Shown here in pieces: positions 9,442 through 61,853 of a stretch of DNA of 64,000 nucleotides. The DNA is from Myxococcota bacterium (lineage in GTDB: Bacteria; UBA10199; JADFYH01), in NCBI GenBank assembly GCA_052034865.1, contig JBPOIC010000039.1:5195-69194 (forward strand), read 5' to 3'. Every line of letters starts with the position of its first letter. The stretch's first letter is position 1. The notes under the pieces are model-generated. The model was not told the DNA's origin and ran no database searches. It worked only from the letters and a program-made list of their open reading frames with translations. Made by a program: the position numbers and the translations under genes.

Positions 9442-9639
9442 TGGGACTTTCTCACTGGGCGATCTGCTTCGTTAAAATTTCTTCAGAAAATCCTCACGTA
9501 CATCCCTGTACTCTCTGGTTTTCTTCAGGAATTTCGCCTTGCATTTCATCCCATTGAGAAAATCCTATTTAAATTTATTCCAGGATTTTCCTCATTTTAG
9601 AAAGAGGATGATTTCACCCTTCTTGACCGTCCTTTTTGA

Positions 9640-27562: not shown

Positions 27563-28866
27563 ATCGATGCCATTATCTTTCTTAGGGTAGTGCCATCTTT
27601 TGCTTCTTCAGGAACAAAAGAAGAGAAGAGTTCAATTTCTGATAGAATAATTTCCTTACGAAAGTTCTCTCCTAAATCCTTTTTATTCCACTGCTCCCTT
27701 AAACTATTCCAGATGAGTTCTTTTTGAGTATCGGGCCTTTCCTGTTCCATTCGCAATGCTTCCATCAGAGTCGAGATGGCGCTTAAATCTTCAGACTTCC
27801 CTAAAATTTCAATAGCAAATTTTCTGATTTCAACATTTTCACTTAAGCAAAGCCCTAAGAGAATTTGATGGGTATACGATGGATTTTGCTGGGTGAGTTT
27901 TAAAAAGAGCTCCTGCAGTTGAGGTGAATAAGTTTTTAGAAATCTTTCTCCCCGAGACTGTTTCAACGAAGCTTCCCATTTTTGTGAAAGAAGGCGGGCA
28001 AACCTGAAAGGATCTTCTTCTTTTTCGAAGAGTGATTTGAAAACGGTTTGATCGAGTTTTTGAATGACCGTTTCCTGCCAGGTAATATCCCAGGAGAAAT
28101 CTTTCGTGGAGATGAGACTTGCTAATGATTCTTCGGCACACTGAAGATCGCGTGCATCGCCGATTTCAATGAGGAGTGAAATCAGCACAGGAAGGCTGAG
28201 AGTAGGACTATAATGAAAATCGTAATGTTCATACTCAAAGCGACTTAAATTCGACTGCCACTCATCAAACAGAGTAGAATCGGTCAGTGCGCATGAATGC
28301 TGAAATAAAAGATGAACCCCAAGCTCCAGGGCTTTTTCAATCTCTGAAGTCATGGGCCGTCCCAAAAATCGAATCAACTCTACCGCTCGGTTTCGTTCAC
28401 TAAACCGTGCATTGCTTAAGTTAATTAAAAGATCATGGGCTAGCTTATGAGTTTCAGGACTTTGCTCCCCGATCTGTCCCCATTTTTTAAGCAGATGAAA
28501 AATCTCTATTCTTTTTTTCAGTGATGGATAGGAAGACAGCAAAGGAGATGAAATGTCCTGCGCCATATTCTTTTTGAAAAGATAGACTCGCCTTTCAAAG
28601 GCCAGGTTGCTTCGATTGGGATCTCCCAAAAGGCGATCGGCCAATTTTTCAAACCCCAGTTCATTAAGTTTTTGGCGGATTTCCGGATTGCGCAGGTCGG
28701 CATCCGGTTGAGTGGCCGAAATCAGGTAGGTCTTGAGTGGAGCGGTGTCGGGAAATAAATCAGTGGGAAGAATATTTTCTGCTTCTTCAGGTGTCAGCCC
28801 GTCTTTATCTGACAAGGCAGCCAGAAGCTTCTCAACACGGTCTCCTCCAATTCGCAACTCTGCCAT
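27559..28866 (-). CDS. HEAT-repeat protein, antisense to the nuo genes, in the position normally held by nuoI
   Basis: 435 aa. Repeated helical pairs such as NVEIRKFAIEILGKSEDLSAISTLMEAL resemble PBS-lyase/HEAT repeats. No catalytic motif recognised. Confidence 0.45.
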   Translation of the reverse strand: MAELRIGGDRVEKLLAALSDKDGLTPEEAENILPTDLFPDTAPLKTYLISATQPDADLRNPEIRQKLNELGFEKLADRLLGDPNRSNLAFERRVYLFKKNMAQDISSPLLSSYPSLKKRIEIFHLLKKWGQIGEQSPETHKLAHDLLINLSNARFSERNRAVELIRFLGRPMTSEIEKALELGVHLLFQHSCALTDSTLFDEWQSNLSRFEYEHYDFHYSPTLSLPVLISLLIEIGDARDLQCAEESLASLISTKDFSWDITWQETVIQKLDQTVFKSLFEKEEDPFRFARLLSQKWEASLKQSRGERFLKTYSPQLQELFLKLTQQNPSYTHQILLGLCLSENVEIRKFAIEILGKSEDLSAISTLMEALRMEQERPDTQKELIWNSLREQWNKKDLGENFRKEIILSEIELFSSFVPEEAKDGTTLRKIMASI

Positions 28867-44200: not shown

Positions 44201-47200
44201 CTTCTCATCCAAAAAAGTGTCCGACTTTATTTTTGCATAGCTCCAGACCGTACTTCCCAAGTCTTTCTTTAAAAAAATCTCATCGATGCGGACTGGAAGA
44301 TAGAGATTTTCAATCGATGAAGATTCTGGAAGAGCGGCTGCCACCACTTGCAGGCAGGCATCCAGAAGGGCGGGATGAAAAGGAGCACTTTGCTCGGGGC
44401 TCTCTGCTTTTAAATTTTTCGGACTTTCAATAAATCCTAGCGCTTCTCTGTTATTTTTAAATAACTTTTGAATTCCCTGAAAAGACGGTCCGTACTCCAA
44501 TCCTGCCCACTTTAGCTTTTGATAAAAATCCTGCACGCCAACAGACTCACACACCCTTTCGCGAATGAAATGGAGGGATAGAGTTTCATCTTTCGATTCC
44601 GGTTTATTCCTTTCATAAGCGATTTCGGCACACGCCTGAAGGGTTTGGTCTGAATCCTCTTGAGAATAAATTTCAAATTCTGATTTGTAAGAAAGAGAGG
44701 AAGTGGAGCGGAGGATGAGAGTCTTTTGTTTTCCTTCATCCAAAAAGAGCGGTTTTTGAAATGAGATCTTTTTCAAAACGATAGAATCCTGCGCGTTTTG
44801 TTTTTTTCCTGCTTCGTAGAGATACGCGAGAGAAGCGGTTGCTGGAAAAAGGATTTCTTTTTGTACACGGTGATCGAGCAGGTAGGGAAAGGTTTTAAGG
44901 TCGATCCGGTGTTCAAATACCGATTCTGATTTTTTTCGTTGGATCGGCAAAAGTGCACTGGATGGTGCTTTGCCCCATTCTCCAAACCAGTAGGATTCCC
45001 TTGCAAAAGGATAAGTGGGGGCCAGCGGCAAGGGTGGAATCGTTTGTCCAAACACAGCTTTCCAATTGACCCACAGGCCGTGCTGATAAAGCGCCGATAA
45101 GGATTTCAGCATTTGATCGCGATCTTCTCCCTCATTTTTAAGACTTGAAAGCCAAAGCCTGGTGGTTCCTGTTTTCGCGAGCCCTCGTTTGGCCAGCAAG
45201 GTGAGGATGGGTTGCGGTCCGATTTCAATCAAGGCGTCGGCGCCTTCACGGATGAGCGTTTCAATGCCGGTAAAATAGCGGACAGGCTCACGCAAATGTT
45301 TGCGCCAATAAGTTGCGGTGGGTGCTGTTTCGAGAAGGTTTCCGGTCCGATTTGAAATCAGTGGAATCTGAGGTTTATAAAAAGAGATCTCTTTCGCTTT
45401 TTCTTCGAACGCATCAAGGATGGGATCCATCAAGGGAGAGTGAAAGGCATGTGATACATTCAAAGTCTGGGTGGCAATCTCAAGCGTAGTGAATTCATCT
45501 TGAAGTGCTTCAATCGCTTCCCGTTTTCCAGATAAAACAAGGGCTCTGGGTCCGTTGAATGCGGCAATCGAAACCTCGTGGGCGTAAGGTTTCAGCGAGG
45601 ATTCAATTTGCTCTTCAGTTGCAATAACGGCGAGCATGGTCCCATTTTTAGGAAGGCCATGCATGAGTTTTGCACGATGCGCGATGAGCGTAAGACCCTC
45701 TTCCCATTCCATCACCTTTGCGACACACGCGGCAACATACTCGCCCACGCTATGACCCAGGACAAAATCAGGTTCAATTCCCCAGGATTTCCATAGCTCG
45801 TACAAGGCATACTCGAGCGCAAAAAGTGCCGGCTGGGTATAGAGGGTTTCGTGGATGAGAGCGGGATTCATTTTAGAATCAAAAAGAATCGAAAGTAATG
45901 AAGTCTCAAGCACGGGTTTCAAAATTCCGTCGCAACGATCCAGCACTTTTCTAAAACAGGGCTCGGATTCATACAGCGAGCAGCCCATTCCCACATATTG
46001 CGATCCCTGGCCGGTAAATAAAAAAGCAATTCTGGGTTTCTTCTTTTGAGAGACAGAAAAATGAATTGAAGATTCTTTCGAGAAACCCTCTTTGTTTTCT
46101 AAAAACGATAAAACAAAATCGGACAGATTTTTTTTAAGCTCGTCCAGGGAGCATGGCAGAAAAAGCGAACGATGCTCAAAATCCGCTCGTCCTGCACATG
46201 CGGTGAAACAGACCTCCTTCAGGGAAAGATAAGAATTATTTTGAAGATAGGAAATCCAGCGTTCTGCGAGTGTTTTTAATCCCTCCACACTTTTAGCCGA
46301 GAGCTTGAAAGGATAAAGGTCTGCATCCTTAAGTTCGGTTGGAAGGGAATCTTTTTGCCTGGCTTCATTTTCTTTATTTATCCAGATTTCTTCAGGACCT
46401 CCAACAACCACATGGGCATTGGTCCCGCCAAATCCAAAAGAGCTGATCCCTGCAAACCTTTGCCTGTTCTGAAAATTCCATGACATCATTTGAGTGGGAA
46501 TCGAAAGTTTCAAGGCAGTCAGATCAATGTGCGGATTGATTTTTTTAAAGTGGAGGTGCGAAGGAATTTGACGATGTTTCAAAGAAAGTAAAACCTTGAT
46601 GAGCCCGGCAATTCCGGCGGCAGCTTCCAGATGTCCAAAGTTGGTTTTGACCGATCCGACTTTGCAAGGTGAGTCTGAAGGGCGATTTTTTTGAAGCACT
46701 TTTCCCAAGGCGGCCATTTCGATCGGATCACCCAGTGGAGTGCCCGTGCCATGGGCCTCCACGTAATCGATTTTTTCGGATGAAATTTTAGCTCTTTGCA
46801 AGGCCTGTAGAATCACATCCTGCTGGGCCTGCCCGTTCGGTGCGGTGAGTCCGTTGCTGCGCCCATCCTGATTGACAGCCGATCCACGAATGATTCCCAA
46901 AATTTCATCTTTATCTCGCACGGCCTCTGCAAGACGCTTGAGAATCACCACTCCACAGCCTTCGCCACGCACATAACCATCCGCTTTCTCATCAAAAGTT
47001 TTGCAGCGCCCTTCAGGGGACATCATCCGTGCCTGTGAAAAGGCGATGTTAAGCTCCGGTCTTAAGATCAGATTGACGCCTCCCGCGAGGGCCAGGTTGG
47101 ATTCCATTCTTCTCAAACTCTCACAGGCCATATGCACGGCGACAAGGGATGAGGAACAGGCCGTGTCGACGGCAAGACTGGGTCCCTGAAAATCAAAAAA

Positions 47201-49994: not shown

Positions 49995-51254
49995 TCAGGA
50001 GGCGGGTTTGGGCTCTTTTTCTCTCATTTTGCGAACGTATTCGAGAAAGAAAGCAAAAAAGATACTCATGAATAGTCCACCTACGAATGAAACCGCAACT
50101 ATCAGGAGCACCTGGGGTTTGGAAGGATGGGCGGGAGGAATCGCAGAATCAATAATCTGAAACGAAAGATCTTCTTTGGCCTCTTCGATCTTGGCCATTT
50201 GATATTGCTGGGTCAGTAGGCCGTTTACCTTGCCAAGCAGTTCACGTTGAAGAGTAAGATATTGGAGGTAAACCTGAGAAGGGACGGCGTGTACCACCCC
50301 TTCTTTTTTTGCTTCAGAAATTTTAGATTTTAAAGATTCACTTTGTTGTTGAACCTGTTGGGTTGCTGATCTCAATTCCTCGAATGTGGGTGGGGCTTCT
50401 TCCAGTTTTCCGACATGAACATCGATTTGGGGAAGGGTGCTGGAGATTTGATTGGAACTGTAGAATTGGTTGAGCTGTTTTCCGGCCTCCAGAAGATCCA
50501 TTTTATTTTTCTGCAACTGGTCTTCTATAAATATGCGGTTTCTTTTGGCGACTGTGAGCTGGTTGTTATTGATGAAATCCTGAAGGTAAACCAGAAAACG
50601 ATTGGTGATGGTCGCTGCAAGTTCTGGGTTTTTAAGCTCAACCTGAATTTTGATAAGATTGGTTTTTTTATCTTCTTCGACGCTTAAGACCTTTTTCTGA
50701 ATGGCCCGAACAGAGTCTTCAAGAATTTCCCGTTCAATCTTTGCCGGATCGTTTTCCTTGGAACCCAAAAAACTCATATCCGGAAGCCATTTTTTTTCTT
50801 TATCATCCCATCTTTTCTCAAAAAAATACGGCATCAGGTTAAAGTCTCTCACAATATTTTCAATCAAGGTCCTACTTTTTAAAATACCAATGATTTGACC
50901 GCTTTTTTGAGAGCCCAGTCCGAGCTGGCCTCCGACAAGGGGAATCGAGGCCGCTTGAGCTGCCAACGCAGCCAAAGCCCCACCCCCTCCACCCGATTGA
51001 GAAAGGGGCGTGATGGTTGCTTCTGCCTTATATTTTTTCTTTATCGTCAAGGCGGTTCCTGCTCCCAGCCCGGTACAAATAAAGGTCAGAAGAATAATTT
51101 TTCCCAGATGCTTTTTAAGGACACGAAAATAATCTAACAAATTGATTTCTTCTTCAGCAGGGTAAGGGGGATACCATCCATAAGGAGGGGAATAGCCCTG
51201 AGGATGAGGATGGAGAGATTGATCCGCCGATGGTTCGGAAGGGGATTGAGACAT
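49995..51254 (-). CDS. Polysaccharide co-polymerase (Wzz/GumC-like chain-length determinant; no kinase domain)
   Basis: N-terminal LLDYFRVLKKHLGKIILLTFICTGLGAG TM helix (Wzz motif), long coiled-coil periplasmic region, C-terminal TM LLIVAVSFVGGLFMSIFFAFFLEYV. Confidence 0.6.
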   Translation of the reverse strand: MSQSPSEPSADQSLHPHPQGYSPPYGWYPPYPAEEEINLLDYFRVLKKHLGKIILLTFICTGLGAGTALTIKKKYKAEATITPLSQSGGGGGALAALAAQAASIPLVGGQLGLGSQKSGQIIGILKSRTLIENIVRDFNLMPYFFEKRWDDKEKKWLPDMSFLGSKENDPAKIEREILEDSVRAIQKKVLSVEEDKKTNLIKIQVELKNPELAATITNRFLVYLQDFINNNQLTVAKRNRIFIEDQLQKNKMDLLEAGKQLNQFYSSNQISSTLPQIDVHVGKLEEAPPTFEELRSATQQVQQQSESLKSKISEAKKEGVVHAVPSQVYLQYLTLQRELLGKVNGLLTQQYQMAKIEEAKEDLSFQIIDSAIPPAHPSKPQVLLIVAVSFVGGLFMSIFFAFFLEYVRKMREKEPKPAS

Positions 51255-51279: not shown

Positions 51280-52458
51280 TTAGTTATTATTCGTAAGAGT
51301 TACAATTGTAGTTGTGGTAGCCAGTCCAAAGGAAATCAAACTCGTCACAAGCGATACCCAGGAGTCACGACTAAAGATTCTTTCAGGAATATAAATGGTA
51401 TCTCCAGGATTGATGAGAATATCTGAATCGGGTTTTAATTTTTTTACCTCGCCCCCAATACCCATGACTTTCACGTAGCCCTTAGCCATACGGGTCGCTC
51501 CTCCTGCCACCGCCAGATAATGCGAGAGATGATAGTTGTGATTGAAGTTATAGGCGCCTGGGGCAGCCACAGCACCAATCACAAAGACCCGGTCTTCAAA
51601 CGAAGGATAAAAAATATTGTCGTTGGGGAGCTGATTGAGATTGTAATCAAATTTGTTCTGGGTGGTGAACATGTGCGGGACGATGATCACATCCCCATTC
51701 AGAATGAGGGTTTGACTTAAGGTCTCGGGATTGTTGGTAATCTCAACGATGTCTTTTTTCTCATTCTCATCGAATCGAATGATACGTATCGGATCTTTAT
51801 GCGACACCCCCTGGGTCATGCCTCCGGCCAGTTTGAATATATCCAATATGCTCCGTTCGTTATTCAGCTCGTAAATTCCTGGGCGATTGACTGAACCTTC
51901 CACCTGAACAACTCTTTTTCGTAAAGGGATAAAGATGACGTCATTGTCCATCAGGTAGGGGTTATCCTCTAAATGTCCAAATACCTTATAAGAAATCAAA
52001 TCGACTTTTTTGGTTGTGGAAGCCCGCCTCAACTCCACATTCCGATCGGATCCATTTTTTTTGATGCCACCCGCAATCTGCAAGGCCTCGGATAAGCGTG
52101 TGGAGGCTCCAATGCGATAAGTGCCGGGTCGAATCACTTCTCCCAAAATATGAATTTGATACATGAGTCCGGAAGCCCCGAGAGATTCCCGAATGCTACT
52201 TCCTTCCATTCCTTCGAGCTGACGGCGAGTCATTGCACTTCCCACGCCGGCCGCCTTATCGCTAAGACCGCCACTTCCTAAAGAAGGGATGCCTTCCTCT
52301 TCGGTACGTGATCGCAGGCTCCCATCGCGCGTGCCCTCGCCCCCGACAAAAATTCCCTGTTGGGCGAAAAGGTTTAGCGGAAGGAAGGTTTGGAGAAGAA
52401 AGGAAATGAGAAGAAAGAAAGTAAAAAAACGAAATTTTGATAAGTTGGAAAGTTTCAT
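51280..52458 (-). CDS. Polysaccharide export protein (Wza/GumB-like, SLBB domains)
   Basis: Signal peptide; PGDVIIVP/GDTIYIP beta-grasp SLBB repeats; C-terminal hydrophobic helix. Confidence 0.65.
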   Translation of the reverse strand: MKLSNLSKFRFFTFFLLISFLLQTFLPLNLFAQQGIFVGGEGTRDGSLRSRTEEEGIPSLGSGGLSDKAAGVGSAMTRRQLEGMEGSSIRESLGASGLMYQIHILGEVIRPGTYRIGASTRLSEALQIAGGIKKNGSDRNVELRRASTTKKVDLISYKVFGHLEDNPYLMDNDVIFIPLRKRVVQVEGSVNRPGIYELNNERSILDIFKLAGGMTQGVSHKDPIRIIRFDENEKKDIVEITNNPETLSQTLILNGDVIIVPHMFTTQNKFDYNLNQLPNDNIFYPSFEDRVFVIGAVAAPGAYNFNHNYHLSHYLAVAGGATRMAKGYVKVMGIGGEVKKLKPDSDILINPGDTIYIPERIFSRDSWVSLVTSLISFGLATTTTIVTLTNNN

Positions 52459-52724: not shown

Positions 52725-53324
52725 ATGAGACGTTTTCTTCTTTTTATTGTTTGTGGATTATTTCTTTCAAGCTTTTCAGGCTTTGCCAACGAGCCTACCC
52801 TCCACCAGCTCGAAAAGGCTGCTCTTCGTTACGGCAATGTCGATCCTGAAGAAATTGCTCACTGGAAAACCCGAGCCAAATGGTCTCCCTTATTTCCAAA
52901 AGTCTATGTGAGCTACGATCAGAAAGCGGCCAACCAGATCAATAATTCCATTCAGGATTCGGTTTCGGTCACGAGCACTGGCGTTACTCTCGGGCCTCCC
53001 GAATCCTCACTCAATCAAGACAACAATCTAAATCGTGGCTTTGAAGTCCGGGCGACCTGGGATCTCGACACCTTGATCTTTAATAAAGAGCTCCTCTCAC
53101 TTTCATCGGAAGCCAGGTATCGCAATTCGATGCGTGCACAAATTTTATCCGAATTACAGCAAACCTATTTCGAAAGAAAAAAACTTCTGCAACGCGAAGA
53201 GGGAAATTCCCGCGACACCTTATCTTCTTCCACCCAAATTCAGCTCGAAGAGCTTGAGGCAAAACTGGACTCTCTTACGGGAGGTTTTTTTACGAAAACT
53301 TCAGGAGATTCTTATGAAAAATAA
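52725..53324 (+). CDS. Hypothetical secreted protein
   Basis: 199 aa with signal peptide MRRFLLFIVCGLFLSSFSGFA, no recognised domain; overlaps start of next gene. Confidence 0.3.
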   Translation: MRRFLLFIVCGLFLSSFSGFANEPTLHQLEKAALRYGNVDPEEIAHWKTRAKWSPLFPKVYVSYDQKAANQINNSIQDSVSVTSTGVTLGPPESSLNQDNNLNRGFEVRATWDLDTLIFNKELLSLSSEARYRNSMRAQILSELQQTYFERKKLLQREEGNSRDTLSSSTQIQLEELEAKLDSLTGGFFTKTSGDSYEK

Positions 53325-55134
53325 ATTCAGCATTTTTCTTGATCCATTCGAGAATGGTCTTTTCATCAGGAAAATCTTTTTCCTGCTCATGTTTCTTGCC
53401 TGGATTCTTCCTTTTTCCTCCTGTTCCAATTTAGATTCGATCAGCTTTAAAAGCCTGCTCAACTCTCAAATTCACGTCACTCAAGTAACTCCCAGTACAC
53501 AGCGAGGACTTTCAGAGCTTTCCAAAATTGAAATTATTTTTTCAGATGCCATTCACGAATCCAGTTTGAGCCCGAATGCCATTTTTCTGGCTGAAGGAGA
53601 GATCGATTCTCAAAACTATGCCGAGCCTGAAAAAATTGAATCGGCCGTGATCAGTGGCGCGATTAAAAGAGTGGGGTCCTCCATAACCCTTCGGTCCGAG
53701 TCCAACATGGTGGATTTGAACCTTGATAACACAATATATGAAGGGATCTATACCCTCGTCGTAACGCCTCAACTCGAAGGTGAAAATCACATTCCTTTTA
53801 ATCAAAATCCTGGGATGTCTCCTTCGGCTTACTTCTGCTCGTTTTATGTTGGTTCTTCTACAAGCGCTGATCCATCCTCAAACTCATCGACTGAAACTTT
53901 AAATCCAGAATCATCGCCTTCTTCCCGACCAGAAGCTCTCGTGCTCAACGAAATTCTTTATGATGGAAAAGAAAGCGACACAGATGGATATGAATTCATC
54001 GAACTTTATGGGACCCCAAACGCAGAGCTGAGCGGCTATCAGGTGATTTTGGTGAATGGGTCCGATGGGGTGATTCAGAAAATCATTACGCTTCCTTCAA
54101 ATAGCAAAACAAACGATGAGGGCATTTTCCTGATTGCTGATCTCCAAACTGGTTCAACGACTAAAAGCCGTATTTCAGGCGCTCAATTACTGGAAAATTT
54201 CGATCCTCAAAATGGACCGGATGCCATTCAGCTTTTAGATGAAAAAGGAAATCTGATTGATGCCCTCACCTATGGAACAGGAGCTGTGGAGATGGCTAAA
54301 AATGGGCTTTCAATGGTGGAAGGAAATCCGTCCAAGGTTGTTAGTGCCGGTCACAGTCTTTCTCGCGTGGGTGGAAAAGATACAGATGAGAATTCGGTGG
54401 ATTTTACCGAACTTGAAATTCCCAGCCCAGGTGTGATCGAACTTCCAGAACAGGCAGTTCCGGAGTCGGCCCCGCAAGTAGGCGATTCCGGCTCAGATTC
54501 TCTGCAACCCATCTCTCAGCCCAAATCCAATCCATCCCCCTCTGATCCAAATCAGCAAACTCCTGAATCAAATCCGGGATCCACTCCTCCAGACCCTCAG
54601 GATCCGAACGAAAATCCTCCCTCTCATTTTCTGGTTCTTAATGAAGTTCTCTACGATGCGGTGGGCACTGATACGGATGGAAATGAATTTATCGAGATTT
54701 ACGGAACCCCAGACACGGATGTGGGTGGCTATCAAATCCTGATTCTCAATGGTGATGATGGAAAAATTTTGGACACGATATTTTTACCTGCCGGAGCGAA
54801 AGTCAGGGCGGACGGTTTATTTTTAATTGCGGACTCCAAGACAAGCCAGCCGACAGCTTCCAATATTTTAAATCCTGATTTCATCGACAACTTTGATCCT
54901 CAAAATGGGCCGGATGGGTTTCAGCTCTTAGATCCTCAGGGAAATCTTGTGGATGCTCTTTCTTACGGAACCGGCGCCTTCACCCAGGCTGAGAATGGTT
55001 TAATTTTTCTCGAAGGTTCGGCTGCGATCGACGTTTCAGCGGGCCATAGCCTTTCTCGAATGAATGGGGCCGATACCCAGCAAAACGCCCTAGATTTTCT
55101 TGATTTGACCAACCCAACGCCTGGGATATTATGA
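53314..55134 (+). CDS. Lipoprotein with N-terminal Ig-like region and two tandem lamin-tail domains (LTD)
   Basis: ATG 53314 after aggaga RBS; lipobox LPFSSC. LTD1 aa267-432 of ORF numbering (nt 53932-54429) LVLNEILYDGKESDTDGYEFIELYGTP. LTD2 (nt 54622-55125) LVLNEVLYDAVGTDTDGNEFIEIYGTP. Pro/Ser/Asp-rich linker between (54430-54621). Confidence 0.7.
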   Translation: MKNKFSIFLDPFENGLFIRKIFFLLMFLAWILPFSSCSNLDSISFKSLLNSQIHVTQVTPSTQRGLSELSKIEIIFSDAIHESSLSPNAIFLAEGEIDSQNYAEPEKIESAVISGAIKRVGSSITLRSESNMVDLNLDNTIYEGIYTLVVTPQLEGENHIPFNQNPGMSPSAYFCSFYVGSSTSADPSSNSSTETLNPESSPSSRPEALVLNEILYDGKESDTDGYEFIELYGTPNAELSGYQVILVNGSDGVIQKIITLPSNSKTNDEGIFLIADLQTGSTTKSRISGAQLLENFDPQNGPDAIQLLDEKGNLIDALTYGTGAVEMAKNGLSMVEGNPSKVVSAGHSLSRVGGKDTDENSVDFTELEIPSPGVIELPEQAVPESAPQVGDSGSDSLQPISQPKSNPSPSDPNQQTPESNPGSTPPDPQDPNENPPSHFLVLNEVLYDAVGTDTDGNEFIEIYGTPDTDVGGYQILILNGDDGKILDTIFLPAGAKVRADGLFLIADSKTSQPTASNILNPDFIDNFDPQNGPDGFQLLDPQGNLVDALSYGTGAFTQAENGLIFLEGSAAIDVSAGHSLSRMNGADTQQNALDFLDLTNPTPGIL

Positions 55135-56258
55135 AAAATCAAAGACTGAGATTTTTTCAGAAATCACAAGATCGTTTCAATAGATTGAAGAGCTTCACGA
55201 TCAGAATTTTCTATTCTCTTCTATTGATGGGATTGTTTTTAGAGTCGGCCTGTATCCGATATCCCAATTCCGGCATTCAGAACTCCTGGACTCAACAACT
55301 CCCTTCATCTCAACAAACGACTTCGGATGAAACGGATGATGAAACCTCTTCGAACTTCCTTAAAATCACTGCCTTGAATGTTGGTCAGGGAGACGCCACT
55401 TTGATCACAACCCCAAATGGAAAAAATCTTCTAATCGATGGTGGGCGGGATGGAAAGGGGCGGGATGTCATCCTTCCATACCTTAAATCTCGAGGAATTT
55501 CCTCGTTGGAGGCAGTCGTTGTGACTCATTACGATGGAGATCATTTGGGTGGAATCGATGAGGTGATCGCAGGCGAAGATGAAAAGTTAGGATCTGACGA
55601 TGATTGGATTCCAAAACTCGGTGTTTACGATCGTGGAGGTTATCCTTTTGATAACGCCCCTTTTTATTCGTCCTATCTTCAGGCGTCAGGAGAACATCGA
55701 AAGACCTTGGCAATTGGCGAGACGGTGAATCTAGATATAAATGTAGAGATCCGCTGTGTGGCCGTAAATGGGAAGGTTCAAAATGGAGAAAATATTGATT
55801 TATCTCAACCCGGTTTTTCAGAAATCGAAAATAGTGCCTCGATTGCCCTATTGATCACCTATGGAAATTTTACTTACCTGACTTCCGGCGATCTGACCGG
55901 TGGAGGAAGCCCCGGAGGTTACAAAACCCTGGATGTTGAAACTCCGCTGGCAAAGGTAGTAGGCCCAGTGACGGCGGTGCATGCAAATCACCACGGAAGC
56001 TTGTCGAGTTCCAATGAGATCTGGATTGAAACCCTCCAGCCTGAACTCGTATTTTTTAGTGTTGGGAATGAGAATGATTACCACCACCCTGCTCAAGAAG
56101 TGCTTGAGCGCTGGCAGGCGACAGACGCCGAAATTTGGCTCACCGAAAAAGGCTCTGGGGGATTTGTTCAGGGGGAGCATGTCGTCAACGGCTCTATCGA
56201 GCTTAGAACCGATGGCGAGAATTTCGAGATGGGTGAAGATCTGATTCCTTTAAATTAG
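55131..56258 (+). CDS. MBL-fold metallo-hydrolase lipoprotein (ComEC/Rec2 C-terminal-like)
   Basis: LKITALNVGQGDATLITTPNGKNLLIDGG ... VVTHYDGDHLGG is the ComEC-type beta-lactamase-fold motif. Lipobox LFLESAC. 4-nt overlap with LTD gene. Confidence 0.7.
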   Translation: MKNQRLRFFQKSQDRFNRLKSFTIRIFYSLLLMGLFLESACIRYPNSGIQNSWTQQLPSSQQTTSDETDDETSSNFLKITALNVGQGDATLITTPNGKNLLIDGGRDGKGRDVILPYLKSRGISSLEAVVVTHYDGDHLGGIDEVIAGEDEKLGSDDDWIPKLGVYDRGGYPFDNAPFYSSYLQASGEHRKTLAIGETVNLDINVEIRCVAVNGKVQNGENIDLSQPGFSEIENSASIALLITYGNFTYLTSGDLTGGGSPGGYKTLDVETPLAKVVGPVTAVHANHHGSLSSSNEIWIETLQPELVFFSVGNENDYHHPAQEVLERWQATDAEIWLTEKGSGGFVQGEHVVNGSIELRTDGENFEMGEDLIPLN

Positions 56259-56445
56259 CCAGTTTCAACATCAAGTGTTTATACATCCACTTTGGAAACA
56301 TCCTTCCCAGCTGTTTTGCCCTCCACTTATTGCCCATACACTTCCTGATTGATTTCCTTCGATTTTTTTCCTAGATCAGTATCTGTATTTCCAACAACTA
56401 CCGAAGAGCTGGATCTTAAAGGACTTTTTGAGTTCTTGTATTCTT

Positions 56446-57126
56446 ATGGAACTGATCGAAGAAATAAAACCATCTTTTAACGTCGATCCCCAATCCGAGG
56501 TTGAAAAAACCGAGAGAAAATGGGGCTATGAGGTGAGTAAACGCCTCTTCGATATCGTTTTTGCCCTCATCCAGATTCCCTTCCTTTTCCCTCTCATGGC
56601 TCTCATTGCCATCCTTATTAAAATCGATTCCAAAGGCCCTATCTTCTTTTCTCACCAAAGGGTTGGTAAAGGGGGAAAGTTATTTCATTGTTATAAGTTC
56701 AGGACGATGGTTGTAGGGGCGCACGAGCTGAAAGCAGATTTAGAACATCTTAATGAAATGGAAGGTCATGCCTTCAAAATGAAAAATGATCCGCGTGTGA
56801 CTCGCTTAGGAAGTTTTCTTAGAAAATATAGTTTGGATGAGCTACCGCAAATTTTTAATGTCATTAAAGGAGAAATGTCTTTTGTCGGGCCTCGTCCTCC
56901 TCTTCCTGAAGAAGTACAGAATTACCAGCCCTGGCATCGAAAAAGACTTTCGGTAACTCCTGGGATTACGTGTTTGTGGCAAATTAATGGTAGAAATGAG
57001 ATTCAAAGTTTTGATGATTGGGTGAGAATGGATCTTTTATACATTCAAAACTCATCTTTTTTACACGATCTGAAGATTATTCTTAAGACCGTTCCAGTGG
57101 TTCTTTCAAGACGTGGGGCGTATTAG
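56446..57126 (+). CDS. Undecaprenyl-phosphate sugar-1-phosphate transferase (small bacterial sugar transferase, WbaP/WecA-like C-terminal domain type)
   Basis: KRLFDIVFALIQIPFLFPLMALIAILIKIDSKGPIFFSHQRVGKGGKLFHCYKFRTM ... SFVGPRP are the canonical priming sugar-transferase motifs. Confidence 0.8.
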   Translation: MELIEEIKPSFNVDPQSEVEKTERKWGYEVSKRLFDIVFALIQIPFLFPLMALIAILIKIDSKGPIFFSHQRVGKGGKLFHCYKFRTMVVGAHELKADLEHLNEMEGHAFKMKNDPRVTRLGSFLRKYSLDELPQIFNVIKGEMSFVGPRPPLPEEVQNYQPWHRKRLSVTPGITCLWQINGRNEIQSFDDWVRMDLLYIQNSSFLHDLKIILKTVPVVLSRRGAY

Positions 57127-57873
57127 ATTTTGGTTCATGACTAGCAAATTGGTTTTGCTTTGAGGAGTTTCAGGATCAATGGGTAGAGGTTTTCATGCTT
57201 GTGATTGAAACTGAACTCACATTCTTTTAAGTGTAAATAGAAAGTCGATTTTCTCATCCCGCGAAACTTCGCAAGCCTCACCTTCGCCAGTCCCCAAAAG
57301 TTCTAAATTCCATTAATGTGGGTCTTATCTGTGGCAAAGACGTTCGCCCCATGGTTGACCCGGTAATGCCTTCGGTATCCTAAATCCACCAGTCCATCAT
57401 AGGCCCGCCATTTGTTCGAATGAATCGTGTTCTTAAAATCGACCTTTCCCCGGATGACCGCATGCAACGTAGATCTGGAGCAATCGGGCACGATCTCTGT
57501 ATAGACCTTGCCGTTGCGCTTATAGACACCAAACACAATCGTTTTTCCTAAAGCTCCACGCCATCTTTTCCCTCGAACGCGTCTGGCTCCAAAGAACGAC
57601 TCGTCTACTTCCACTTCTCCTTGAAAAGGCGATTCTCTCTCGCAACTTTGAGCAATGAGTTGACGGATGAGGGTTAGATAACGATTGAATCGTATTCCGA
57701 TTAAGTCCTGACAATTGAGCAATCTGAGTTGCCTGCAAATCCACCGAAAAATATCGGACAATTTCCCGGATTTTAGCCCTCGAAATCTTTGAACCATGAA
57801 AACACCCGCGAACCCTTATCATCTCTAGCTTTTTAGACATTATTCATGCCATTTGCTAGTCATGAACCAAAAT
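57127..57873. mobile_element. IS1595-family-derived miniature element with near-perfect 25-bp terminal inverted repeats and decayed transposase
   Basis: IRL attttggttcatgactagcaaattgg (57127-57152). IRR ccatttgctagtcatgaaccaaaat (57849-57873) has one indel versus the reverse complement. Begins immediately after the sugar-transferase stop codon. Confidence 0.6.
57303..57840 (-). pseudogene. IS1595-family (ISXO2-like) DDE transposase, frameshifted and C-terminally truncated
   Basis: N-terminal frame (57520-57840) has HTH region FSVDLQATQIAQLSGLNRNTI. C-terminal frame (57303-57797) has ESPFQGEVEVDESFFGARRVRGKRWRGALGKTIVFGV...PDCSRSTL...HSNKWRAYDGLVDLGYRRHYRVNHG...THINGI, then stop. The usual ESFWS... 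tail is absent. Confidence 0.6.
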
Positions 57874-57886
57874 TATTTTGTCACTC

Positions 57887-59153
57887 ACAACTAAAGATGT
57901 CCTGTGATTGATTTTATTCATGCGGCCTTTTTTTTGGCTTTCAGGCTGTAAGGTTTGCCGTTTTGTTCGTACTGTCCCAACAGCTTGTCCTGATAACTCA
58001 CTCCCAACGTTCCATTGGGAAACTGGTGGACGATGACCGGACAGCGAACAAAGTGAACTCTCTCAGGCCTTTCAGGAATCTGCAGAATCACATTCTGGTA
58101 AGTCACGGTGTTGTCTTGGCGCACAATCCTCTCCTCCTGAACCGAAAGCAGAAGCTTTAAGTCAATGCCTGCCAAAGGAGTAAAGGCCGTCTCTGTCTAA
58201 GCCGGGGGCACCGTAAAGAGTTTATTGAACTTCGCTAGAAACGTTTTGTTCAGATACTCATTGGCCTGATCATAGCTTTGAATCCCCTCCAAACGAAGCT
58301 CTTGAGGCAGTCTACCTTGGAACGTCCCAAACGCCCGCTCACTCCTCCCCCGTGCCTGAGGAGAACGAGCGGAGATCTGACGGATTCCTAAGGCCTTTAA
58401 CACCCGACTGACTTGGCCGTTCTGCACCTCATCCGGTCCTTGCACCGCCTGGCTAGTCCGTCCGAAGTGAGATCTTCGATCATGATAGAGCTCACAGAAA
58501 CGACCATAACGGGTCAAGACATGCTCCAAAGCAGCCAGGGTCGACAGCGTCCCTTCCTGAGGTACGAATCGGGCATACAACGCCTTGCCATCCGCATCGT
58601 CTAACACCAAGATTAAATCCCAGGGCGGAATGCTTGCAATCCATTCATGAGTTGATCCATCGATGTGGATCAACATCCCCCGCATCCCACGCCTCTCCCG
58701 TTTACGCCGATGCTTTCCCCGAGACGGCCCTTTCTGGACAATCCCCGCCTCCTCCAACACGATGCGGGTCCAGTTGTAGGAAAGAGACAGCTGATGCTTT
58801 TGGGTCGCATATTCGTGAAAATGCTTCACGGAAAAATCAGGATAAATCTCTCGCTTCAAGCGACACACTTCCTCAATCGTCTGGAGAGCAATCCGCTTGC
58901 GGCGGGGCGTGCCTGATCGCTTATCTCTTAAACCCCCATACCCATGCTCTTCCCACCGCTTTTTCAACCGACGCATCTGGCGGGCGCTGATCCCTAAAAT
59001 ATCCGCTGCCTGGATCCAGCTGATCTTCTTCTCGATGGCCTTCAAGATCACTTCTTTCCGGGTCATTTGTCTCGCCTCCCGGGTGACGGCTTTGTTATGG
59101 GTATTCATCCCATAATGATCGCCTCACCCTGCAAAGCGGACATCTTTAATTGT
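57887..59153. mobile_element. IS481-like (rve/integrase-core) insertion sequence with split transposase
   Basis: Imperfect terminal inverted repeats acaactaaagatgtcc (57887-57902) and ggacatctttaattgt (59138-59153). Transposase on minus strand in two frames: 58197-59108 (HTH plus DDE core) and 57918-58175 (C-terminal domain). Confidence 0.5.
58197..59108 (-). CDS. rve-type DDE transposase, IS481-family-like (main fragment; C-terminal part continues in another frame at 57918-58175)
   Basis: N-terminal HTH ISWIQAADILGISARQMRRLKKRWEEHGYGGLRDKRSGTPRR. Integrase core LIHIDGSTHEW...LVLDDADG...FCELYHDRRSHF. Confidence 0.6.
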   Translation of the reverse strand: MNTHNKAVTREARQMTRKEVILKAIEKKISWIQAADILGISARQMRRLKKRWEEHGYGGLRDKRSGTPRRKRIALQTIEEVCRLKREIYPDFSVKHFHEYATQKHQLSLSYNWTRIVLEEAGIVQKGPSRGKHRRKRERRGMRGMLIHIDGSTHEWIASIPPWDLILVLDDADGKALYARFVPQEGTLSTLAALEHVLTRYGRFCELYHDRRSHFGRTSQAVQGPDEVQNGQVSRVLKALGIRQISARSPQARGRSERAFGTFQGRLPQELRLEGIQSYDQANEYLNKTFLAKFNKLFTVPPA

Positions 59154-59266
59154 TTATGATGCGGACATATCCAATGTTAGGGACAATGTTTGCAGAGGGG
59201 CTTAAGAGAACCTGGGAGTGGTTTAAGAGAAGAAAATGAAAAATATAGATACAGACTTCATCAGTT

Positions 59267-60655
59267 TTAATTTCTATATTCCAGATAAATCCAAGGAATC
59301 GAATTTGTAAATTTTGCAGTAATATTTGAATTGGTAAACGGAGGAGGGTGATCACCCACAATTAAAAAGTCAGTCGGCGGGAGTGACGGATCCTTCAGAA
59401 CTTCAGATATAGACTGAAACAGCGCATCTAACACGGAGTAAAGTGCACAAATTTGAGGATATCTACTTATATTTTCATTCTGACTACAGACACTTTCTCT
59501 TTCACTCTTTATGTCACTCGATAAAGGTAGATGGGAGTTTAAAGTAAGCCAATAAATAAACTTCTTTTTCTCAGTTTTTTCATTCAAGAGATTGAGCAAG
59601 TGATGAGCGATCTCAAAATCGCAAACACCCTGAAACGCAATCCCACATAATTTATAATTCAGTGGTTTAAAATCTTCCAAGTATATCTCTTTTTCAAACC
59701 CAAGTAACTTATGCCATACATCGCGATCGTAGAATTGGCCGGTAAATCCGTGAAGGGAGTAGGTATCAAATCCTTTCATTTTATAGTACTTTGGCAAGCA
59801 TTCGAAATCGATAGAAGAAATATGAATGCCCGTTAGCTTTTTTGCACAGAGTTCCCTAATTTCGCCATGAATAGTAGATCCACCTGTAAAAGGAATTCTT
59901 CCTTCATAAATTTTAAATCTTTGTTGTATTAGTGGGGCCAGAAAAATATTAAAAAGATTACTGTTTAATGAAGGATCCTGAAACTCTCCTAACGATTCGA
60001 CCAAAACCAGTACAATATTTTCGGACCTTTTTCCCCAAATTTGACTAGAAGCAAATTGGTCTGAAGTTAGCCCCTCAAATTTTGCTTTCTGGGCAACTCC
60101 ACTTACAATAGCTGAAATGATACCAAAAGCCGGAGAACCTCCAAGATTAACCTTATAATGTACATTGTCAGCTCTTGAGAAAATAGTTGTGCCATTCACC
60201 CAGTCTAAAAGAGAGAATAAACACGCGAGAAGTAAGAATGCAAAAGGGATCTTTGAGTGGTTTTGCTCTTTTGTTTTTTTTACCCGGAAAATAAGGAAAT
60301 AAAAAACAAAGATGAAAATTAAAAACAAGACTAAGCTTAAAGTTAAGGTTTTGAAGATATAAAAATACTTGATGAGATATATTATCTCTGCAGGATGTAA
60401 ATGGTAAAAATGCCCTAATGCAGTAAGTACATCAGCAAGGAAACACAAACTAAACAGAAACAAAAACAGGTACCTTCTTAAATAATAGCTTGAAAATGCA
60501 ATCGCAAAATAATCTACGTTAACAAATGCACGATCGTAGAAATAATCTTTGCGAAAAAACCAAAAAAATAAATTCGGGATAAGAATAAGGAGAAAGATAC
60601 GTTTTAGAAAGCCTGATGTTTTTTTTTTGTTCATCATTTTAGATGTATTATCCAC
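59267..60655 (-). CDS. Membrane-anchored sulfatase-like / LTA-synthase-like (alkaline-phosphatase superfamily) protein
   Basis: About 5 N-terminal TM helices then IVLVLVESLG, GGSTIHGEIRELC, IVGDHPPPF. Lies in a visibly AT-rich stretch. Confidence 0.55.
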   Translation of the reverse strand: MDNTSKMMNKKKTSGFLKRIFLLILIPNLFFWFFRKDYFYDRAFVNVDYFAIAFSSYYLRRYLFLFLFSLCFLADVLTALGHFYHLHPAEIIYLIKYFYIFKTLTLSLVLFLIFIFVFYFLIFRVKKTKEQNHSKIPFAFLLLACLFSLLDWVNGTTIFSRADNVHYKVNLGGSPAFGIISAIVSGVAQKAKFEGLTSDQFASSQIWGKRSENIVLVLVESLGEFQDPSLNSNLFNIFLAPLIQQRFKIYEGRIPFTGGSTIHGEIRELCAKKLTGIHISSIDFECLPKYYKMKGFDTYSLHGFTGQFYDRDVWHKLLGFEKEIYLEDFKPLNYKLCGIAFQGVCDFEIAHHLLNLLNEKTEKKKFIYWLTLNSHLPLSSDIKSERESVCSQNENISRYPQICALYSVLDALFQSISEVLKDPSLPPTDFLIVGDHPPPFTNSNITAKFTNSIPWIYLEYRN

Positions 60656-60680: not shown

Positions 60681-61853
60681 TTAAATTTTTTTTAATGAAG
60701 GACCTTTGCGCATATTAAATTCACCCCAACATTTCTCCACAAAATTTTTAAACTCTTTCCTGAATCTTTCAACCGAAAATCTCTCTGCATTTTTACGACA
60801 TATTTCGGGTAGAAATATGTCCGGTTTCTTCTCGAAGAAATCCACAGCAGAGACTATTGCTTGTGCGCTTTGCTCTTCAAAGAATACACCTGTTGGAGAC
60901 TGATCCCAACCATCAGGTCGATTCGCCCAAACACCCAAAATAGTTTCTAGTGCTCCCCCTTTTCCAAAGGCAATCACAGGGGTTCCACAGGACTGAGCCT
61001 CTACTGGTGTGATTCCAAAATCTTCCTCTGCCGCAAAGATAAAAGCCTTCGCCTTTTGAATATGAGTTTTAAGTACCTCAAAAGGTTGATGTCCTAATAA
61101 TTCCACATTACGACCTGCCTTCTTTTTCACTTTTTTGAAATCAGGCCCATCTCCAATAACTATTAATCGTTTGTCCGGCATTTTTGAGAAAGCTTCAACG
61201 ATCAAATCTATTTTCTTATAAGGGACCATTCTAGAGGCAGTGAGGTAAATATTTTCTTTTGTTTCGTTTAATTTGAAGGAATCAAGATCCACTGGAGGAT
61301 AAATTACTTTAGAATCACGTCTGTAAACCTTTTTAATTCTCCGGGAAATATAATGAGAATTTGCAATAAAGATATCCACCCCATTAGCACTAGAAACGTC
61401 CCATTGGCGTATCTTATGGAGAATCCATTTCGCAAACCAACCTTTAAACCCCTTATTCAAATTGGATTCTTTTAAATATTGATGCTGTAAGTCCCAGGCA
61501 TAACGCATTGGGGAGTGAACATAAGAAATGTGAAGCTGATCAGGCCCTGTGATAACACCTTTGGCAACAGCATGAGAACTTGAGATTACCAAATCATAGC
61601 TACTTAAATCGAATTGCTCTATCGCTAGAGGCATGAGGGGTAGGTATTGGCGATATCTAGTTTTCGAAAAAGGAAGTTTTTGTATAAATGAAGAAGTGGA
61701 TTTTTTATTTTGAAGAAAGTTTCTATGATTTAAAGATATGAAGTCTACAAGGGTAAAAATCTCTGATTCAGGATAACAATCGAGTATTTGTTCTAGCACT
61801 TTTTCTGCACCAGCAGATGTTACCAGCCAATCGTGAATAACAGAAATTTTCAT
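60681..61853 (-). CDS. Glycosyltransferase family 4
   Basis: MKISVIHDWLVTSAGAEKVLEQIL... and C-terminal EDFGITPVEAQSCGTPVIAFGKGGALE (E-x7-E). Confidence 0.8.
   Translation of the reverse strand: MKISVIHDWLVTSAGAEKVLEQILDCYPESEIFTLVDFISLNHRNFLQNKKSTSSFIQKLPFSKTRYRQYLPLMPLAIEQFDLSSYDLVISSSHAVAKGVITGPDQLHISYVHSPMRYAWDLQHQYLKESNLNKGFKGWFAKWILHKIRQWDVSSANGVDIFIANSHYISRRIKKVYRRDSKVIYPPVDLDSFKLNETKENIYLTASRMVPYKKIDLIVEAFSKMPDKRLIVIGDGPDFKKVKKKAGRNVELLGHQPFEVLKTHIQKAKAFIFAAEEDFGITPVEAQSCGTPVIAFGKGGALETILGVWANRPDGWDQSPTGVFFEEQSAQAIVSAVDFFEKKPDIFLPEICRKNAERFSVERFRKEFKNFVEKCWGEFNMRKGPSLKKI

Follow-up and report, generated by a model that had tools for sequence, protein, structure and literature searches.

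Two decayed insertion sequences of different families behind a priming phosphoglycosyl transferase gene in a polysaccharide locus

Introduction

Insertion sequences (IS) and their remnants are found where the modules of O-antigen and capsule loci join, and the founding IS1202 adjoins the type 19F capsule locus of Streptococcus pneumoniae. The locus studied here poses the question whether two degraded IS, located directly behind the stop codon of a priming sugar-transferase gene, took part in bringing a glycan gene cassette into place, and whether they still influence the genes around them. A preliminary description of the 64-kb window (the whole stretch of DNA that we analysed) had read the pair as an insertion hotspot at the boundary of a horizontally acquired glycan cassette and had considered outward promoters or polar effects on the genes downstream. 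To answer the question, the family, extent and state of each element have to be settled before the history of the site can be weighed.

Results

The IS pair lies between two complete, convergent genes

The two elements sit where two convergent genes of a Wzz/Wza-type polysaccharide locus meet at their 3' ends, in a spacer made of A and T only. The site comprises the following features.

56446-57126, plus strand: small priming phosphoglycosyl transferase (PGT; Bac_transf, 226 aa), the left flank; intact, ending ...RRGAY-TAG
57127-57131, no strand: A/T spacer ATTTT, 5 nt, from the PGT stop codon to element 1; complementary to 57869-57873 and outside the family-conserved termini
57132-57868, minus strand: element 1, a full-length IS1595-family (IS1016-type) IS of 737 bp, delimited by end-to-end alignment with intact elements
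57141-57840, minus strand: element 1 transposase pseudogene, about 232 codons, three lesions
57869-57878, no strand: inter-element spacer, 10 nt, A/T only, AAAATTATTT, read from the sequence
57879-59185, minus strand: element 2, an ISNCY-class IS with IS1202-family, ISTde1-type traits, 1307 bp, delimited with NF033594 and by comparison with multi-copy relatives
57918-59108, minus strand: element 2 transposase pseudogene, 396 codons in one frame, one in-frame TAG
59186-59266, no strand: spacer, 81 nt, from element 2 to the sulfatase-like stop codon, read from the sequence
59267-60655, minus strand: sulfatase-superfamily membrane protein (Pfam PF00884), 455-462 aa, the right flank
60681-61853, minus strand: GT4 glycosyltransferase, second gene of the low-GC module, GC3 0.30

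Both flanking genes are full length, the PGT gene ending on the plus strand at 57126 and the sulfatase-like gene on the minus strand at 59267. The PGT matches Pfam PF02397 with 236 bits, covering the profile to position 178 of 179, and reaches a score of 309 against TIGR03025 (cutoff 295.55). Its C-terminus, ...RRGAY-stop, recurs in the 69%-identical orthologue of L183, a syntenic metagenomic relative, and is thus the native end; the normal C-terminus previously reported for this WbaP-like gene is borne out. The sulfatase-like gene has a GC content of 34% and a GC3 of 0.32. Its product aligns end to end with homologues of 455-500 aa (best non-self match 33% identical in an exhaustive representative search), so that a truncation of the gene could be rejected, and a sequence search of the PDB returned no match for it. 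The 81-nt spacer next to this gene holds a 16-nt direct repeat (59195-59210 / 59216-59231). An independent Logan assembly, SRR34217545, is 100% identical over 13,137 bp spanning the IS pair. Given this identical assembly, an assembly quirk is not obvious.

Element 1 is a full-length IS of the IS1595 family

The inverted repeat (IR) by which element 1 was first noticed is real. It had been given as near-perfect over 25 bp, bounding an element of about 747 bp; the repeat is in fact a perfect 23 nt (57127-57149 / 57851-57873), for which shuffles of the window predict zero matches by chance, but the extent of the element has to be revised. Comparison within the family places the conserved termini, GGTTCATGAC...GTCATGAACC, at 57132 and 57868, which leaves perfect terminal IRs of 18 nt (57132-57149 / 57851-57868) and a core of 737 bp. 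The outer 5 nt of the 23-nt repeat belong to the A/T flanks, whose complementarity is accidental.

The transposase belongs to the IS1595/ISXO2 type, as first suggested: a 164-aa fragment alone scores 65.7 bits against PF12762 (cutoff 27) and 106.7 bits against NF033547 of NCBIfam (cutoff 75). Element 1 aligns end to end with an intact element of 736 bp (L020, 78% nucleotide identity), as well as with the intact element on T. lovleyi pIAE1 (L001). Between its 737 bp and the 736 bp of the closest intact relative, the sole indel is one extra T.

This T, near 57689, causes a +1 frameshift and is one of three lesions in the pseudogene. In the second, GAG has become TAG at 57303-57305, in the codon of the invariant catalytic Glu of INGIENFW; in the third, AAC (Asn) occupies 57414-57416, where eight relatives have the second catalytic Asp. 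The 18-nt IRs are perfect despite these three inactivating lesions, which neutral decay alone would not quite lead one to expect.

The transposase had been thought to lack its C-terminal 60 or so residues, which made the element look MITE-like. However, the C-terminal part of about 70 codons is still there and continues the frame of the 164-aa ORF beyond the in-frame TAG. Nothing of the coding region is missing, so that element 1 is a full-length, pseudogenised IS. P0121, an intact protein of 232 aa, shares 87% of its residues with the reconstructed 232-aa protein, and no protein in a set of 5.8 billion sequences exceeds this amino-acid identity. The reconstruction contains the motifs E-DESYFG ... 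D ... HINGIENFW...K ... KECEFRFN in order (DDEK type). As read from this reconstruction, the catalytic pattern is that of the IS1016 subgroup, but the present copy is inactivated, with N for the second D and TAG for the E codon. The length of 737 bp and the short terminal IRs also fit the size criterion of the subgroup, whose members are about 700-745 bp long in ISfinder.

In the IS1016 subgroup, the motif order is DESFFG ... HS(D)..W..Y ... HINGIENFW...K ... LKECEF.FN, direct repeats are 8 bp long and A/T-rich, and Moraxella is described as carrying single copies decayed by frameshifts or premature stops (PMC12561309). Element 1 resembles its members ISApl4 and IS1016 in size (about 0.7 kb; 737 bp versus 712 bp in ISApl4), in having one transposase gene that fills the element with its stop codon inside the right IR, in the catalytic layout (DESFFG ... 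HSD.W..Y ... HINGIENFW...K ... LKECEF.FN), in its short, perfect terminal IRs and in the A/T-rich 8-bp direct repeats made by its relatives. It differs in its termini, GGTTCATGACTAGC, and in that direct repeats are missing and three inactivating lesions present in this copy.

Element 2 has the traits of the IS1202 family

Element 2 had been described as IS481-like. Its transposase fails the IS481 model NF033577 (78.8 bits, cutoff 224) and passes NF033594, the NCBIfam model for ISNCY (276 bits, cutoff 250); HTH_29, HTH_28 and HTH_23 all score above their cutoffs at the N-terminus. We infer that NF033594 equals the IS1202 group of ISfinder. The assignment to the IS1202 family, ISTde1 type, is based on the traits that element 2 appears to share with it, namely the HTH, the DD pair, Q at E+7 and the TGT ends.

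The earlier division of the rve transposase into two pieces, 58197-59108 and 57918-58175, stands as a split, but no change of frame is involved: both ORFs lie in the same frame and are parted by a single TAG at 58197-58199. This TAG replaces a Gln (the column is Q in nine of ten aligned relatives and E in one) and takes off the last 92 residues, leaving a product of 303 aa. The HTH, D150, the D170/D171 pair, D210, E257 and Q264 are kept, and these acidic residues and Q264 are invariant in an alignment of 11 sequences. The truncated product thus retains the whole DDE triad, and its complete loss of activity is assumed. Intact relatives of 380-397 aa are 77-80% identical to the transposase, while annotated ISNCY transposases on plasmids reach only 32-34% amino-acid identity.

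The ends of element 2, TGTCAC (57879) and GGGACA (59185), were set by comparison with multi-copy relatives of the P0001 type and replace the bounds first given, 57887-59153. Over the terminal 24 nt, about 17 of 24 positions match between the two ends, which have TGT...ACA termini. On the 3' side of the transposase gene, the end of the element (57879-57902) has a single TTAAAGATGTCC motif; at the 5' end, a terminal motif (59162-59185) is joined by an inner one (59138-59153). The 16-nt IR noticed earlier pairs the terminal motif of one end with the inner motif copy of the other. A P0001-type element, 77% identical to element 2, has two motifs per end and is flanked by 15-bp target-site duplications (TSDs) at two sites. 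Judged against this type (1335 bp) alone, the sole relative type with a readable 3' end, element 2 has a 26-bp deletion at one end that fuses its two transposase-binding motifs. The P0005-type element has an IRL with the same two-motif structure, but its 3' end is itself divergent or degenerate, which is why the deletion has to be read from the P0001 type. We also rejected the idea that element 1 had inserted into the end of element 2, as the missing 26 bp are not found beyond element 1. With the revised bounds, the elements are separated by 10 nt (5 nt if counted from the IR first described), rather than by 13 nt.

IS1202-family transposases have a DDE triad with a DD pair between D1 and D2 and a Q seven residues past the E (bioRxiv 10.1101/2022.12.17.520857), and the elements end in 5'-TGT...ACA-3', their terminal IRs being imperfect and about 24-26 bp long (PMC10132070). 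Element 2 agrees with the ISTde1 subgroup of this family (formerly the ISNCY IS1202 group; bioRxiv 10.1101/2022.12.17.520857; PMC10132070) in its N-terminal HTH and rve-like DDE domain, its DD pair between D1 and D2 and Q at E+7, its 5'-TGT...ACA-3' termini with imperfect IRs of about 24 bp, the 15-bp direct repeats of its close relatives, and its occurrence in diverse uncultivated lineages. It differs in being of a shorter type (1307-1335 bp and 396 aa, versus about 1.5 kb and 441-457 aa in the ISAjo2 type), in the second, inner copy of the end motif, and in the nonsense codon, 26-bp end deletion and lack of a direct repeat of this copy. The HTH plus rve-type DDE layout and the TG...CA termini are shared with IS481, whereas the catalytic E is followed by Q and not by K/R; the IS1202 group has been reported as a distant relation of IS481, and one phylogeny even places it inside that family (PMC10045372).

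Both transposase genes contain an in-frame TAG, and recoding or read-through of this codon was considered and rejected, because TAG ends the PGT gene and several other ordinary ORFs and because element 1 is also frameshifted and has the catalytic D-to-N change. In the window, TAG is the stop of 7 out of 39 ORFs counted, the two IS pseudo-ORFs included, and it acts as an ordinary stop codon in the source genome.

Neither target-site duplications nor further copies are found

No direct repeats of 6 nt or more flank element 1, element 2 or the pair as a unit. The flanks of element 1, TAGATTTT and AAAATTAT, contain no A/T-rich TSD of 7-9 bp, of the kind seen in its IS1016-type relatives (TTAAATTA in L001, AAAAAATA in L014 and TTTTTAA in L017); the missing TSD reflects the history of this copy, not its family membership. 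Element 2 likewise has no direct repeat, of the 15-17 bp expected in the ISTde1 subgroup, although its P0001-type relative makes TSDs of 15 bp.

Further copies of either element were not found within the 64-kb window, nor was a further IS end in its last 4.8 kb and the 2.8 kb beyond it (L003). In the gene index, each IS pseudo-ORF is recorded on one contig only, and both IS families are absent from 162 loci (1.44 Mb) around PGT homologues. The records for the PGT and the 303-aa ORF (P0241 and P0044) lead only to a single Logan contig, which covers this very locus. Over the range covered, these counts speak against an insertion hotspot. When 185,579 species genomes were scanned for exact matches to the 23-nt IR, none turned up. 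The preliminary description had proposed a search for 8-bp (IS1595) TSDs and for additional IR copies, and would have given up its reading had the elements belonged to other families or had both searches been empty. Neither element has a TSD, no further copy was found in the window, and one of the two elements is of another family, so that this account stands only in part.

The pair lies at a conserved/variable junction inside the locus

In L183, the block PKS-Wzz-SLBB-x-LTD-MBL-PGT is syntenic with the window at 65-70% nucleotide identity. All detectable homology ends at window positions 57124-57132, which is the PGT stop codon. To the right, L183 has a GT2 and rml-type and other sugar genes, while the window has the IS pair, the sulfatase-like gene, the GT4 and a putative CDP-sugar operon. 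As noted in the preliminary description, the DNA right of the pair is AT-rich, with 30-37% GC versus about 47% in the core genes; the GC3 of the first two genes is 0.30-0.32, versus 0.49 +/- 0.04. In L183, where only 8 nt part the convergent stop codons, the junction and the fall in GC recur although no IS is present, so that cassette exchange at this point does not need IS elements.

The homology break and the fall in GC3 uphold the proposed cassette boundary, but not its position at the edge of the locus. Since Wzz, Wza and the PGT are all encoded left of the pair, the comparison points to a conserved/variable junction inside the polysaccharide locus, and not its outer edge, as what the pair marks. 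In a search for an empty site, PGT relatives proved at most 57-60% identical in GTDB genomes and JGI metagenomes, and 68-69% at best in the large protein set. With a PGT only 69% identical in the nearest relative of the locus, neither the time nor the manner of the exchange can be linked to the two IS. A second PGT relative, on the 4-kb L184, is found in another context, with NusG downstream.

Discussion

How did two IS come to lie in this gap? We consider it likely that two unrelated elements inserted independently and then decayed, that at least one flank was replaced afterwards, and that the pair is now most likely inert. Each element would have entered on its own the sole stretch that tolerates insertion, because only 8 nt separate the stop codons in L183 and both IS types favour A/T-rich targets, and both would then have decayed where they stood. 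As the relatives make clean TSDs of 8 bp and 15 bp and none are present here, at least one flank was probably replaced after insertion, through recombination between IS copies or an IS-mediated rearrangement; this step is read solely from the missing duplications. IS1202-family members that have no direct repeats have been reported and ascribed to recombination between copies (bioRxiv 10.1101/2022.12.17.520857; PMC10132070). The replacement would fit an exchange of the low-GC, sugar-specific cassette on the right. As it stands today, the pair parts no gene from its promoter.

A plainer history is possible, if doubtful, in which the elements inserted successively into the A/T-rich spacer with no rearrangement, their TSDs were eroded, and the cassette difference is older and unrelated to the pair. 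The flanks of element 1 do agree at 5 of 8 positions, L183 has this junction and fall in GC in the absence of an IS, and the several mutations in both elements indicate that neither is young. However, chance alone would give a 5/8 match in all-A/T sequence about once in ten cases, three substitutions within an 8-nt TSD fit badly with 36 of 36 unchanged IR bases, and the 15-bp TSD expected for element 2 has left no trace (ATGTTTGCAGAGGGG versus ...AACCAAAATTATTT).

We regard it as rather unlikely that the pair is the scar of an IS-mediated replacement of a serotype cassette. Here, recombination between IS copies, or a composite transposon with its partner beyond the window, would have brought the low-GC module of GT4/sulfatase-like and putative CDP-sugar genes next to the conserved PKS-Wzz-Wza-PGT backbone; if true, this would explain the missing TSDs of both elements. 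That the pair, or one of its elements, is specifically an arm of a composite transposon that delivered the cassette, its partner IS lying past the window end, seems quite unlikely. Such an origin would suit two elements that lack TSDs beside a compositionally foreign cassette, and IS1016-type pseudo-compound transposons with copies that have no direct repeats are known (PMC12561309). Yet there is no other IS end in the remaining 4.8 kb or the 2.8 kb beyond (L003), L183 has an equivalent variable cassette with no IS, and both elements are dead, each pseudo-ORF being recorded on a single contig.

An effect of the pair on expression of the neighbouring glycan genes, via an outward promoter or polarity, is very unlikely, because both neighbours are intact and converge on each other. 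Several IS families are known to have outward promoters, and the transposase genes are co-directional with the sulfatase-like/GT4 unit, so that read-through would run antisense into the PGT gene. Against this earlier proposal, the complete flanking genes converge on the pair and none lies downstream of it, a scan of 56300-59500 for sigma-70-type promoters found two sites (shuffle mean four), both outside the elements, and Rfam matched no family in 56000-60000.

Most improbable of all is a metagenomic assembly chimera of two genomes joined via a shared IS copy, which would account for the missing TSDs and the GC step: assemblies of the P0001-type IS are demonstrably chimeric across copies, the flanks are unlike in composition and the source is apparently uncultivated (among 185,579 species representatives the IR has no match and the best PGT is 60% identical), but the Logan assembly gives the same 13.1-kb sequence across both elements, a chimera needs repeats while the gene index has each pseudo-ORF only once, the glycosyltransferase and sugar-nucleotide genes needed by the Wzz, Wza and PGT side are provided on the right, and L183 has an analogous low-GC cassette at the same position.

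Taken together, the IS pair is a commonplace relic of mobile elements; it marks a swap point of gene cassettes and reveals no new mechanism. As in O-antigen and capsule loci, the relic lies between conserved export/initiation genes and a low-GC, serotype-specific cassette; here, in contrast, two IS families are stacked 10 nt apart, and the organism is apparently uncultivated. The value is mainly for annotation, in that both IS relics now have a corrected family, extent and state. Two divergent IS lineages are added, with at most 87% and 80% amino-acid identity to anything in very large databases, and for the relatives of element 2 the 15-bp duplications and paired end motifs are now clear. The gap after the PGT gene is where the conserved backbone gives way to the variable low-GC cassette, which helps to delimit this cassette in the lineage.

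Setting of the insertion sequence pair

Element 1, an IS1595-family insertion sequence (IS) of IS1016 type (57132-57868), and element 2, an ISNCY-class IS with IS1202-family traits (57879-59185), form a pair inside a polysaccharide locus. The window is chromosomal in nature, with a nuo operon, citrate synthase, methylmalonyl-CoA mutase and a 2883-aa FAAL-PKS. The locus is laid out as follows:

49995-51254, Wzz/GNVR gene, left of the pair
51280-52458, SLBB/Wza-like gene, left of the pair
53314-56258 (+), lamin-tail-domain (LTD) protein gene with two LTD repeats, then metallo-beta-lactamase-fold (MBL) protein gene, between the SLBB/Wza-like and PGT genes
56446-57126 (+), small priming phosphoglycosyl transferase (PGT) gene, left neighbour of the pair
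59267-60655 (-), sulfatase-like gene, right neighbour of the pair
60681-61853, GT4 gene, right of the sulfatase-like gene

Farther right lies an operon for an NTP transferase, a 4,6-dehydratase-like protein, DegT, a sugar isomerase and an epimerase, the last four genes being read in L003, a Logan contig of the same locus. Judged solely by domain content, this operon may be read as a putative CDP-sugar pathway. The FAAL-PKS (41291-49942, -; AMP-binding, ACP, KS, AT, DH, ER, KR, ACP) adjoins the Wzz/Wza genes. Elsewhere, a 435-aa ORF without Pfam match (27559-28866, -) lies antisense inside the nuo operon, flanked by the NuoH-like gene and the genes that follow it; its GC3 of 0.39 is under the core mean.

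Element 1 is full-length and inactivated

Element 1 is bounded by a perfect 23-nt inverted repeat (57127-57149 / 57851-57873) that has no match in 100 window shuffles and no third copy in the window. The inverted repeat of the preliminary description, made without database searches, is thus real, with 23 nt perfectly complementary. Between its arms, the minus strand encodes an IS1595-family transposase (PF12762, 65.7 bits; NF033547, 106.7 bits, cutoff 75). An annotated intact IS1595-family IS on a Trichlorobacter lovleyi plasmid aligns end to end with element 1 at 66% nucleotide identity. Closer intact relatives occur in metagenomes, among them P0121 (232 aa), with 87% identity to the protein reconstructed from the window. 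The core of element 1 measures 737 bp versus 736 bp in the P0121 element; the sole length difference, an extra T near 57689, causes the frame change and hence the two-frame split noticed earlier. The 164-aa ORF stops at TAG 57303-05, in place of the invariant Glu of INGIENFW, and the same frame goes on as NFWGLAK...KPIC, so that the C-terminus once thought to be missing is present beyond the stop. Codon 57414-16 is AAC (Asn) versus Asp in the HSD.W motif of 8/8 aligned relatives. A truncated, MITE-like element is ruled out by the matching length and the complete C-terminus. The motif order of the reconstructed protein agrees with the IS1016-subgroup signature quoted in PMC12561309, and by these comparisons element 1 is a full-length but dead IS1016-type element.

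Five independent relatives share the termini GGTTCATGACTAGC...GCTAGTCATGAACC. Because these lie inside the repeat as first drawn, its outer 5 nt (ATTTT / AAAAT) are flanking bases, whose complementarity would arise by chance in ~3% of cases, given all-A/T flanks. These bases, 57127-57131 and 57869-57873, are mutual reverse complements and extend the apparent repeat from 18 to 23 nt. Relatives are flanked by 8-bp A/T-rich duplications (TTAAATTA, AAAAAATA, TTTTTAA); element 1 has no target-site duplication (flanks TAGATTTT vs AAAATTAT).

Element 2 is an ISNCY-class element

The second transposase, likewise on the minus strand, had been called IS481-like. For its 303-aa ORF, the ISNCY model NF033594 gives 276 bits, above its cutoff of 250, whereas the IS481 model gives 78.8 bits, below its cutoff of 224. 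As IS1202 is reported to be a distant relative of IS481 (PMC10045372), the earlier call was a near miss. The protein retains the HTH, D150, the D170-D171 pair, D210, E257 and Q264 (E+7); an HTH, DDE residues with a DD pair and Q at E+7 are given as IS1202-family features (bioRxiv 10.1101/2022.12.17.520857). Element 2 is therefore, on sequence grounds, an ISNCY-class element with IS1202-family traits.

The transposase is indeed divided into two ORFs (303 and 85 aa), but these share one frame, and the split is a lone TAG (58197-99). Many intact relatives (380-397 aa, 77-80% identity) have no stop at this position, and the aligned residue is Gln in 9/10 and Glu in 1/10. TAG ends 7/39 tallied ORFs, two of them IS pseudo-ORFs; since it also terminates PGT and other ordinary genes, the in-frame TAGs of both elements are plain nonsense mutations.

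The P0001-type intact relative is found at ≥3 sites. Its ends (TGTCAC...GTGACA) span ~50 bp, a TTA.AGATGTCC motif occurs twice in each, and the element generates 15-bp A/T-rich duplications, all of which fits the ISTde1 subgroup. The duplications are alike among copies (GAAAATGATAATAAA, GAAAAGAATTAAAAC; contigs L004-L013, groundwater-type metagenomes), and contigs join the left flank of one copy to the right flank of another, so that the assemblies are chimeric across the IS. Alignment to this type sets element 2 at 57879-59185 (1307 vs 1335 bp), longer than first proposed, with no indels in the coding region. Judged against the P0001 type, the sole relative type with a readable 3' end, a 26-bp deletion 3' of the transposase gene fuses both end motifs; in the 16-nt inverted repeat of the preliminary description, one arm is this fused motif and its partner is the inner motif at the opposite end. 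No flanking direct repeat of 15 bp, or of any length ≥6 nt, was found for element 2 or the whole pair; the search for duplications suggested earlier thus came back empty for both elements and the pair. The 81-nt spacer between element 2 and the sulfatase-like stop codon holds a 16-nt direct repeat (GAGGGGCTTAAGAGAA / GAGTGGTTTAAGAGAA, 21-nt spacing, 59195-59231), a 13-nt complement of which lies inside the transposase gene (58924-58936).

The pair marks a conserved/variable junction

The best available comparator, the 128.5-kb JGI metagenome contig L183, has a collinear block, PKS-Wzz-SLBB-x-LTD-MBL-(one extra gene)-PGT, with matching orientation and 65-70% nucleotide identity to the window. 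This synteny (L183 1-10669) suggests a conserved lipid-plus-glycan locus. The LTD and MBL proteins are kept inside the polysaccharide locus of both. The extra gene (9458-9841) encodes a 127-aa 23S_rRNA_IVP-family protein between MBL and PGT; at this place in the window there is just a gap of ~170-190 nt (56259-56445).

Similarity by blastn and tblastx ends entirely at window 57124-57132. In L183 a convergent GT2 gene follows 8 nt past the PGT stop, then rml-type and other sugar-nucleotide genes; the set right of the IS pair in the window differs. Both contigs show a GC drop at this point. For core genes of the window, GC is 0.471 ± 0.021 and GC3 0.487 ± 0.044; right of the pair, GC3 is 0.315 (sulfatase-like) and 0.304 (GT4). 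Element 2 itself is more GC-rich than the host (GC3 0.605). The pair thus marks a conserved/variable junction inside the polysaccharide locus. The cassette boundary proposed earlier holds in its core, through the homology break and GC drop, but not as the outer edge of the locus. Cassette diversity does not depend on the elements, since L183 has the same junction without an IS.

PGT and the sulfatase-like gene are complete and run toward each other, with the pair between them. PGT ends ...RRGAY-stop like its L183 orthologue, in keeping with the normal C-terminus reported before, and homologues of 455-500 aa match the sulfatase-like protein from end to end. No gene is therefore cut off from its promoter, and a sigma-70-type site scan found none inside either element, which argues against the suggested outward promoter or polar effect. 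An Rfam scan around the pair gave no match. The sulfatase-superfamily membrane protein itself has ~440 full-length-type homologues at E <1e-30 and no relative >33% identical among 1.84 billion representative proteins, an unusually isolated member encoded by a very low-GC gene.

An assembly chimera at the pair is unlikely, given 100% identity of an independent Logan assembly over 13,137 bp spanning it and the functional coherence of both sides. A general insertion hotspot, as first envisaged, is not supported, because the window and the 2.8 kb beyond it contain no additional end of either element, each IS pseudo-ORF is on one contig only of the gene index, and neither family occurs around PGT homologues in 162 loci (1.44 Mb). 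The element 1 repeat has no exact match among 185,579 species genomes. A past IS-associated rearrangement, hinted at by the missing duplications, seems possible at slightly under an even chance. The elements may have survived merely since insertion was harmless only at the PGT/sulfatase-like spacer.

Taken together, the elements of the pair are new members of known IS families, both decayed, that lie in the A/T spacer between convergent genes at a cassette junction. Nothing points to a present function; its value lies in a corrected annotation and in locating the boundary of a variable cassette.
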